A DNA stretch of 64,000 bases, from contig NC_081333.1 in NCBI RefSeq assembly GCF_022539665.2, positions 7,998,001-8,062,000 on the forward strand, in the 5' to 3' direction. A model generated the notes under the pieces. It did not search any database. It was not told where the DNA came from and worked only from the letters and a program-made list of their open reading frames with translations. Below are positions 35,354 through 35,772 of this stretch, piece by piece; within the stretch, counting starts at the first letter, position 1; every line of letters begins with the position of its first letter. The DNA comes from Daphnia carinata (Eukaryota). The position numbers were made by a program, and so were the translations under genes.

Positions 35354-35422
35354 TACTGGCATGGGAATCGATCCTCAGACATTCAGCGTGCAACGCCGAT
35401 GCTCTAACATTGAGCCACGAGA
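35354..35422 (-). other. tRNA-like (pseudo-tRNA) unit, anticodon-loop position TGC
   Basis: Minus strand: tg GCTC aatgtta GAGC a TCGGC gttgcac GCTGA atgtc tgagg atcgatt ccca. D arm, anticodon arm and T loop present; acceptor stem poor. Confidence 0.55.
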
Positions 35423-35525
35423 TATATATAAATTTTTTATTATCGCATATCATATGTTATCGTCTAGGATGTTTATGCAGTCTTTCACAACTATATGTTT
35501 ATCTTTGTATTGCTTTTATAATGTC

Positions 35526-35590
35526 CATAGCACTGTGGTAGAGCATTCAGCTGCGATAACTGTTACCCTGGGTTCAAACCTTACTAGATG
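35526..35590 (+). other. tRNA-like unit with A and B boxes
   Basis: tagcactgtggtagagcat (A box) ... gggttcaaacc (B box). Confidence 0.45.
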
Positions 35591-35706
35591 TATAAAAATC
35601 TACATCTAAATGGAGAAAATAATAATGCAGTATTGCATTTCAGTTTTATTCAAAGTGTAAATGCAAGTCCGCAAGTGACTAGAAAAAAGCCAACTTAACA
35701 TCATAT

Positions 35707-35772
35707 GATTCATGGCTCATTGGTAAAGCATCGGCGCGGAATGCCGAACATATAGGGTTCGATCCCTGGATA
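35707..35772 (+). other. tRNA-like unit, anticodon-loop position GGA
   Basis: tg GCT cattggtaa AGC a TCGGC gcggaat GCCGA acata taggg ttcgatc cctg. Confidence 0.55.

Follow-up and report, generated by a model that had tools for sequence, protein, structure and literature searches.

Long inverted arms around a spacer, with the potential to give a hairpin RNA, are known from the foldback elements and hairpin-RNA loci of Drosophila. Pol III promoters of small-RNA genes are already known in retroelements, where they make the template for transposition, and the nearest described case is that of the TRIMp3 elements (Cassandra, Helenus, and Ajax), mobile LTR retroelements with tRNA- or 5S-derived sequence that is conserved mainly at the promoter boxes and is unlikely to yield a working tRNA (PMC10886601). 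At host loci with measured occupancy, the Pol III machinery slows or stops Pol II, either from upstream, as in the TFIIIB/TFIIIC roadblock met by Pol II nearing a tRNA gene in yeast (PMC5052057), or head-on, as in the interference of an antisense Pol III-transcribed MIR with Pol II elongation in Polr3e (PMC5358760). DNA transposons of the IS3EU/GingerRoot type are recognized by TAYGG..CCRTA or TA..TA ends and 6-bp target-site duplications (PMC12730594, PMC10045372), have a share of 0.05% in the D. pulex genome (PMC8594854) and are described as largely unexplored (PMC11934779); tRNA-like parts are not mentioned in the descriptive portions of PMC10045372 and PMC12730594.

The window, that is, the whole stretch of 64 kb of Daphnia carinata DNA that was analysed, contains a non-autonomous foldback DNA transposon of 5.4 kb (copy 1), a second copy of it (copy 2) and, at 49.6–52.9 kb, a diverged relative whose inner arms are 78–82% identical (Table 1). 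Both copies carry the termini TATGG..CCATA (at 32596/38028 in copy 1 and 55203/60221 in copy 2) and copy 1 is flanked by the 6-bp duplications CACTTT and GACTTT, which agree in 5 of 6 positions, whereas copy 2 has none and its flank is mirrored. The terminal inverted repeats exceed 30 bp, the entire arms being inverted and 93–100% identical (in copy 1, 93% outside and nearly 100% inside). The element thus has its ends and duplication length in common with IS3EU/GingerRoot (PMC10045372, PMC12730594) and differs in that one short gene is present on both arms, which forms a long inverted repeat, and in that no transposase was found: neither the arm protein nor 27 frames of the relative and its flank had any Pfam match, a DDE transposase of IS3 type included, and Pfam runs on 9, 10, and 103 peptides returned no transposase and no alpha-kinase. 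The terminal motif had no match in 20 metagenome loci with related sequence. At 54283–54422 the window also holds a 140-bp hairpin mini-element with the foldback's terminal sequence and a truncated right end.

In the spacer between the arms, tRNA-derived sequences with putative Pol III promoter boxes are fixed parts of this TIR foldback element. Unlike the tRNA-like sequence of the Helenus-like TRIMp3 elements, which is placed inside direct LTRs, the units are enclosed by inverted arms that have the ends of a DNA transposon, and the predicted Pol III transcripts are confined to the spacer. In contrast to the foldback and hairpin loci of Drosophila, the arms are separately spliced and have their own poly(A) signals, and Pol III-type boxes are present in the spacer. 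Searches of open PubMed Central articles and of bioRxiv brought up no description of tRNA-derived promoters within IS3EU or Daphnia foldback elements; Repbase or supplementary files may hold the family.

Table 1. Positions of the foldback elements, their genes, structured elements, and tRNA-like units in the window.
Feature	Position	Strand	Remarks
Left target-site duplication CACTTT	32590..32595	+	copy 1
Foldback element copy 1	32596..38028	.	termini TATGG..CCATA, IS3EU-type, non-autonomous
Left arm gene, spliced, inward	32777..35130	+	3' end inferred from AATAAA at 35100-35105
Structured element, left arm gene	34680..35045	+	predicted 3' UTR; about 350 nt, GC-rich
First T4 after u1, candidate Pol III terminator	35130..35133	-	adjoins predicted cleavage site of left arm
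GT-AG intron, outward strand, downstream of u1	35241..35312	-	skipped in run X1 contigs of family copies
Unit u1, TGC	35353..35424	-	A box 8/9, B box 7/7, anticodon stem 5/5, acceptor 3/7
Unit u2, GCG	35521..35592	+	A box 8/9, B box 7/7, canonical anticodon stem 1/5, acceptor 6/7
First T4 after u2	35644..35647	+	
Unit u3, GGA	35706..35777	+	A box 8/9, B box 7/7, anticodon stem 5/5, acceptor 4/7
First T4 after u3	35916..35919	+	adjoins predicted cleavage site of right arm
Right arm gene, spliced, inward	35920..37820	-	3' end inferred from poly(A) signal at 35943-35948
Structured element, mirror copy, right arm gene	36006..36362	-	
Right target-site duplication GACTTT	38029..38034	+	copy 1; 5/6 match to left
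Left structured element of relative	49720..50075	+	
Unit r1 (u2 type), diverged relative	51870..51941	+	A box 7/9, B box 6/7
Unit r2 (u1/u3 type), diverged relative	52137..52208	+	A box 8/9, B box 7/7; cloverleaf fold
Right structured element of relative	52570..52910	-	
Flank outside copy 2	54630..55202	+	mirrored at 60222-60794
Foldback element copy 2	55203..60221	.	no target-site duplication, arms nearly identical
Structured element, further window copies	56860-57225, 58205-58565		
Copy-2 spacer	57395..58032	.	blend of copy-1 spacer and its own reverse complement; probable consensus artefact
Copy-2 counterpart of u3	57455..57527	-	one B-box change
Hybrid u1/u2 unit	57630..57702	-	spacing 49 instead of 45
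Hybrid u1/u2 unit	57804..57876	+	spacing 46, anticodon stem 0/5
Isolated u3 piece (upstream flank and A box)	57951..57973	+	23 nt, copied from opposite strand

An initial annotation of the sequence had described eight tRNA-like units that point outward from the spacers. All eight were recovered, all of them within spacers, and their outward orientation and the triplets TGC, GGA, CGC, and ACG were as described there; in copy 2, three units are accompanied by a 23-nt A-box fragment. A pattern of D arm and B box, which was composed after the units had been seen, matched 7 of the 8 units and nothing else on both strands of the 64 kb (mean of 0.07 matches in 200 block shuffles), and the eighth was recovered by ARAGORN at a lowered threshold. 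A stricter scan (A box 8/9 and B box 7/7) gave six matches, all in spacers, and eight shuffles together gave one. With looser limits for the two boxes, r1 at 51870 was not above chance by its boxes alone (1–4 matches per shuffle); its alignment to u2 at 35521 reaches a z of 5.9.

The units do not resemble functional tRNA genes with a full cloverleaf and a 7-bp acceptor stem, since only 2–6 of 7 acceptor pairs are formed. With default settings ARAGORN found no tRNA gene among them, three units scored 20–22 bits with the Rfam tRNA model, below its cut-off of 29, and among 12 Rfam rows for the units and the 350-nt structured element of the arm genes nothing exceeded a family cut-off. Acceptor stems had been called poor, which applies to the five independent units as a whole (18 of 35 pairs) and not to the unit at 52137 (r2), which has a 5-bp acceptor stem and a cloverleaf. 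Also, the anticodon-like arms ascribed to the units close in the canonical register in three of the five and not in the remainder (5, 1, 5, 1, and 4 of 5 pairs). Folding gave a z of -2.45 for the r2 cloverleaf, and the other six of seven folded units were no better than their shuffles. In viral contigs, the unit motif had no match. A model (R1) trained on the eight units returned those eight and only two weak rows and missed a true tRNA in the metagenome locus L006; it is too narrow for a proof of absence. Motifs of RNase P/MRP, SECIS, the ENE/MALAT1 triple helix, and ribozymes, as well as those of a Helitron/Helentron end and a Fanzor guide RNA, were also considered; Rfam gave no support for any of them.

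For questions of conservation the independent units are u1, u2, u3, r1, and r2 (n = 5), and the full-length readings come from one member of the element family and one relative. These five align without gaps, and the distance from T8 to T54 is 45 nt in every one of them. The five units agree with the box consensus (the core of which is given also in PMC10886601) in 34 of 35 positions of the B box and 39 of 45 of the A box; the B-box mismatch of r1 is at the first position, and the copy-2 counterpart of u3 has another. The 3' strand of the D arm has the highest mean pairwise identity (0.87), followed by the A box (0.71) and the B box (0.69); the 5' strand of the anticodon stem has 0.56, and the acceptor strands, the anticodon loop, the 3' strand of the anticodon stem, the variable region, and the flanks have 0.25–0.41, loops and flanks being at background. 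D stems pair in 3–4 of 4 positions, and none of 12 pairs in D, anticodon, and T stems shows a compensatory change. The boxes, together with the D-arm 3' strand, are better conserved than these other parts, although the units were picked by their boxes. With A boxes of 7–8/9, B boxes of 7/7 in four of five units, and an identical tRNA-like spacing, the units have the sequence of type-2 Pol III promoters, and it is a DNA promoter, not an RNA fold, that appears to be kept. The proposal of the initial annotation that the units are retained as Pol III/TFIIIC sites gains support from the box identity and the identical spacing in 5/5. The units are very probably derived from tRNAs and part of the element; that selection for factor binding has kept them seems probable, with a smaller degree of assurance.

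Comparison with the relative points in the same direction. There r2 aligns with u1 at a z of 16.9 and with u3 at 10.1, r1 corresponds to u2 as mentioned above, and the order is kept, with the u2-type unit followed by the u1/u3-type unit and then the arm, in the same direction. Units are present on one side only in the relative, which, like the two B-box mismatches, speaks against the barrier reading proposed below. In all four flank comparisons between element and relative no similarity was detected (z -0.5 to 0.6). Conserved unit islands within flanks that are not conserved would fit promoter sites and not separate SINE insertions. A palindromic MITE-like repeat, also found in the metagenome loci L009, L015, and L018, lies in the relative's spacer at 51155–51519.

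The units sit, facing outward, between two poly(A) signals: each arm gene passes through its structured element and then reaches an AATAAA (35100 on the plus strand, 35948 on the minus strand). The first T4 runs after the arm-nearest units (35133 and 35916, and 52488 in the relative) lie at or before the poly(A) regions of the arms; in the relative both units run to the T-run at 52488, between the right structured element and r1/r2. Predicted Pol III transcripts would thus end at the ends of the arm mRNAs, and antisense overlap would be minimal, which weakens the earlier suggestion that the units act as antisense promoters. From this arrangement a barrier function can be proposed. TFIIIC, TFIIIB, and Pol III would load on the units. 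Pol II running past its own poly(A) site would collide head-on with one unit and, further along, reach the upstream side of another that is placed the opposite way, and either contact would stop it before the far arm was copied; without such a stop, a read-through hairpin RNA of about 2 kb might form and feed RNAi. That the units act in this manner as a barrier against read-through hairpin RNA is a tentative reading, to which we give slightly less than even weight. The yeast roadblock and the Polr3e MIR are precedents for both types of contact (PMC5052057, PMC5358760), whereas the present units are putative sites borne by a transposon. The wider proposal is more doubtful, namely that a TIR family recruited tRNA promoters as a firebreak with which mirror arm genes can be expressed without an RNAi hairpin, their mRNAs sharing a 350-nt 3' element conserved across Daphnia-like genomes. 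If true, the foldback would stay expressed and multi-copy despite being a ready-made trigger of RNAi, and a barrier in a TIR element would be a new use of Pol III promoters.

Sequencing runs bear on this reading from two sides. Contigs of run X1, which is labelled 'DNA?', skip arm-gene introns (of 15 listed joints and 7 further ones, 6 were checked and all 6 are GT-AG on the minus strand), and for this reason run X1 is very likely RNA, in which the arm gene is very likely transcribed and spliced. The X1 contigs, which come from other family copies and give neither strand, ends, nor level, have depths per bin of 1,145–14,556 at 35916–37853, 59–77 at 35712–35915, 2–6 at 35406–35711, 447–591 at 35202–35405, and 61 at 35100–35201. 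Their low depth in the middle of the spacer fits a barrier, as a weak hint. On the other hand, the outward intron at 35241–35312 is skipped in a minority of them (joint depth of about 50 compared to about 500). A spliced outward RNA downstream of u1 would mean that Pol II crosses the spacer or starts in it, and Pol II activity there, as it appears from these contigs, argues against a tight barrier. On the strand of the spliced outward RNA, the segment 35202–35405 is accompanied by a TATA-like run at 35422–35432 and by AATAAA signals. Run X24, from the same sample as X1, contained next to none of the element's words, and a joint from 35415 to 36302 in runs X2 and X4, with a side of 25 nt, was dropped as unreliable.

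The main rival to the barrier reading is that the units are passengers, tRNA genes or tRNA-SINE heads which were captured once by an ancestral element and are decaying without function. tRNAs of different isotypes share the positions and spacing of their A and B boxes anyway, and because of this the capture of several tRNAs could give the pattern observed without selection. Passengers would also agree with the lack of covariation (0/12) and with the related loci. Of 20 metagenome loci with the inner-arm element (L001–L020), 16 are cut inside the element, their upstream side being uninformative; no unit was found upstream of the structured element in the four loci with upstream sequence (one of which is a truncated element) or in the foldback spacer of L008, which gives 0 of 5 informative loci, and because units are absent from all five, related elements do without them. 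Furthermore, in run X2 of a related species at least 17 contigs match the D-arm part of u3 and then diverge, suggesting that similar heads exist in many copies elsewhere. Locus L006 was set aside, as the element is joined there to a bacterial purH gene and a tRNA-Pro, likely in a chimeric metagenome contig. However, decaying passengers would hardly be expected to keep near-intact boxes and no spacing indel in 5/5 while acceptor pairs drop to 18/35 and the flanks can no longer be aligned with those of the relative. Passenger status is thus somewhat unlikely.

Unlikely, too, is a role of the units as promoters for short outward RNAs of 120–350 nt, possibly polyadenylated, which might serve as antisense regulators or small-RNA precursors. 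The unit starts are followed by A-rich tracts of 291, 123, 210, 618, and 351 nt that are free of T4, and in the X1 contigs u1 and the roughly 200 nt beyond it have the depth of 447–591, with the minus-strand intron in use. However, these contigs carry no strand or end information, the downstream tracts are dissimilar between element and relative, and the predicted transcripts stop before the structured element, which is better folded on the mRNA strand (z of -2.6 versus 0.3).

RNase P and RNase Z are known to process a family of mascRNA-like substrates and need an acceptor stem. The units might act as such cleavage signals, cutting far-arm read-through RNA in which they lie in sense, and any such RNA would contain one sense unit or more; r2 folds into a cloverleaf, and D stems are mostly paired. 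However, the conserved and covarying acceptor/T-arm helix typical of mascRNA-like substrates was not found, r2 being the only cloverleaf, and the folds of u1, u2, and u3 do not surpass those of shuffled sequences. With 18/35 acceptor pairs and 0/12 compensatory pairs, processing signals, which the initial annotation had also proposed, lack support and are very improbable.

Equally remote is the possibility of independent recent insertions of tRNA-SINEs into AT-rich spacers. SINEs are present in Daphnia genomes (PMC8594854), and tRNA-derived ones share with the units a head with A and B boxes, partial D and anticodon arms, and a lost acceptor stem. However, the units have no common body or tail and no convincing target duplication, keep order and orientation in the relative, and are fixed in a larger element. 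The duplications and tails of such insertions were looked for and not found: two of the five units have no target duplication, two have one at chance level, and one has a low-complexity A/T 11-mer 313 nt away; no body or tail is shared after the units except for a short downstream match of u1 and u3, which is part of the spacer's own symmetry; and the 64-kb window has no dispersed unit copies beyond the spacers.

The units of copy 2 had been described as mosaics of copy-1 units, one of them joining the 5' half of one to the 3' half of another. Two of the three are indeed u1/u2 hybrids in sequence, but the unit at 57806 does not consist of two halves: like the copy-2 spacer as a whole it switches its source repeatedly, and it is probably not biological. 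Of its 638 positions, the copy-2 spacer departs at 85 from the reverse complement of the copy-1 spacer, and at 76 of these 85 it equals the forward copy-1 strand (100 shuffles: mean 49, maximum 58), with 41 switches of source in 638 nt and nine positions private to copy 2. Recombination products are less likely than an assembly blend in view of the 41 switches, and in such a blend reads of the two orientations were probably merged into one consensus; long reads are known to yield foldback and palindrome artefacts (PMC12870357, PMC6218980). Real mosaics, formed by template switching or by the repair of mismatches while the spacer was folded back, are a possibility of about one-third weight. Hairpin repair predicts the pattern at mirrored discordant pairs, of which 13 of 20 are homogenised, 7 are unchanged, and none is swapped, although this is not decisive as independent choice would give only 1–2 swaps. 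The nine private positions also speak for a real origin. Against it stand, besides the switches and the 76/85 agreement with the opposite strand, the palindrome, which has 5 substitutions over 2,765 bp, lacks a target duplication, and mirrors 573 bp of flank, too, the spacing of 49 and 46 in hybrids when it is otherwise invariant, and the X1 contigs, which keep the copy-1 layout (35243–35378 with 2 gaps and 35421–35596 with 0 gaps). The near-perfect palindrome at 54630–60794, with arms of 2.76 kb that include the 573 bp of outside flank, is possibly a misassembly or an inverted duplication. In spacers between near-identical inverted arms, assembly blending can pass for 'mosaic' biology.

The structured element of about 350 nt, which lies just before the AATAAA of the arm genes and is also present in L001–L020, folds better than its shuffles (z -4.4), and its alignment favours the mRNA strand (60 column shuffles). 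In 11 sequences, both partners have changed in 10 of 31 pairs, which occurred in 0 of 500 shuffles, the structure itself having been taken from this alignment. Over the element, contig depth sums to 12,000–68,000 in run X2 and 3,500–9,400 in run X4, suggesting that it is high-copy in related crustaceans, a lead apart from the units. Another foldback, at 2444–4033 of L008, has a spacer that is AT-rich and a 5' structured module that differs from that of the window and also occurs in L010 (745–900) and in L018 (about 1990–2150, reoriented strand); because L010 and L018 join this 5' module to the 3' module of the window, the element is modular.

The predicted arm genes are members of a gene family that is multi-copy in Daphnia carinata. 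Each exon of the right arm gene is 89–100% identical to D. carinata protein P0008, and 14 clusters of uncharacterised D. carinata proteins, with 95 member sequences on different contigs, match an arm exon at 79–95% identity. Some identical proteins of the family have adjacent locus numbers, as would be expected if other family copies were foldbacks, too. Residues 75–126 of the arm protein align, at 56% identity over 54 residues, with the start of D. magna P0017, the rest of which resembles helix-turn-helix regions of clusters with an rva_4 integrase. A derivation of the arm gene from a transposase gene is suggested by this as a lead, not as proof; a search for a longer or full-length homologue linking the arm protein to P0017 or the integrase clusters found none, the ESM Atlas gave only scores below 0.8 for the arm protein, and the TPR protein P0021 was treated as a chance match. 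The left arm gene has an in-frame stop and an internal duplication of 566 bp. This duplication, with a spacing of 566 bp, occupies 33544–34561, and past it the left arm is nearly identical to the right, which suggests conversion or an assembly switch.

Elsewhere in the window, a tandem array of nine copies of a 140-bp unit, 98% identical and with apparent splice sites, is located at 47219–48471. Genes with Tyr/Thr/Ala/Pro-rich repeats occupy the minus strand at 39380–45950, their longest frame being without a Pfam match, and at 61736–62260 an exon on the minus strand matches SURF6.
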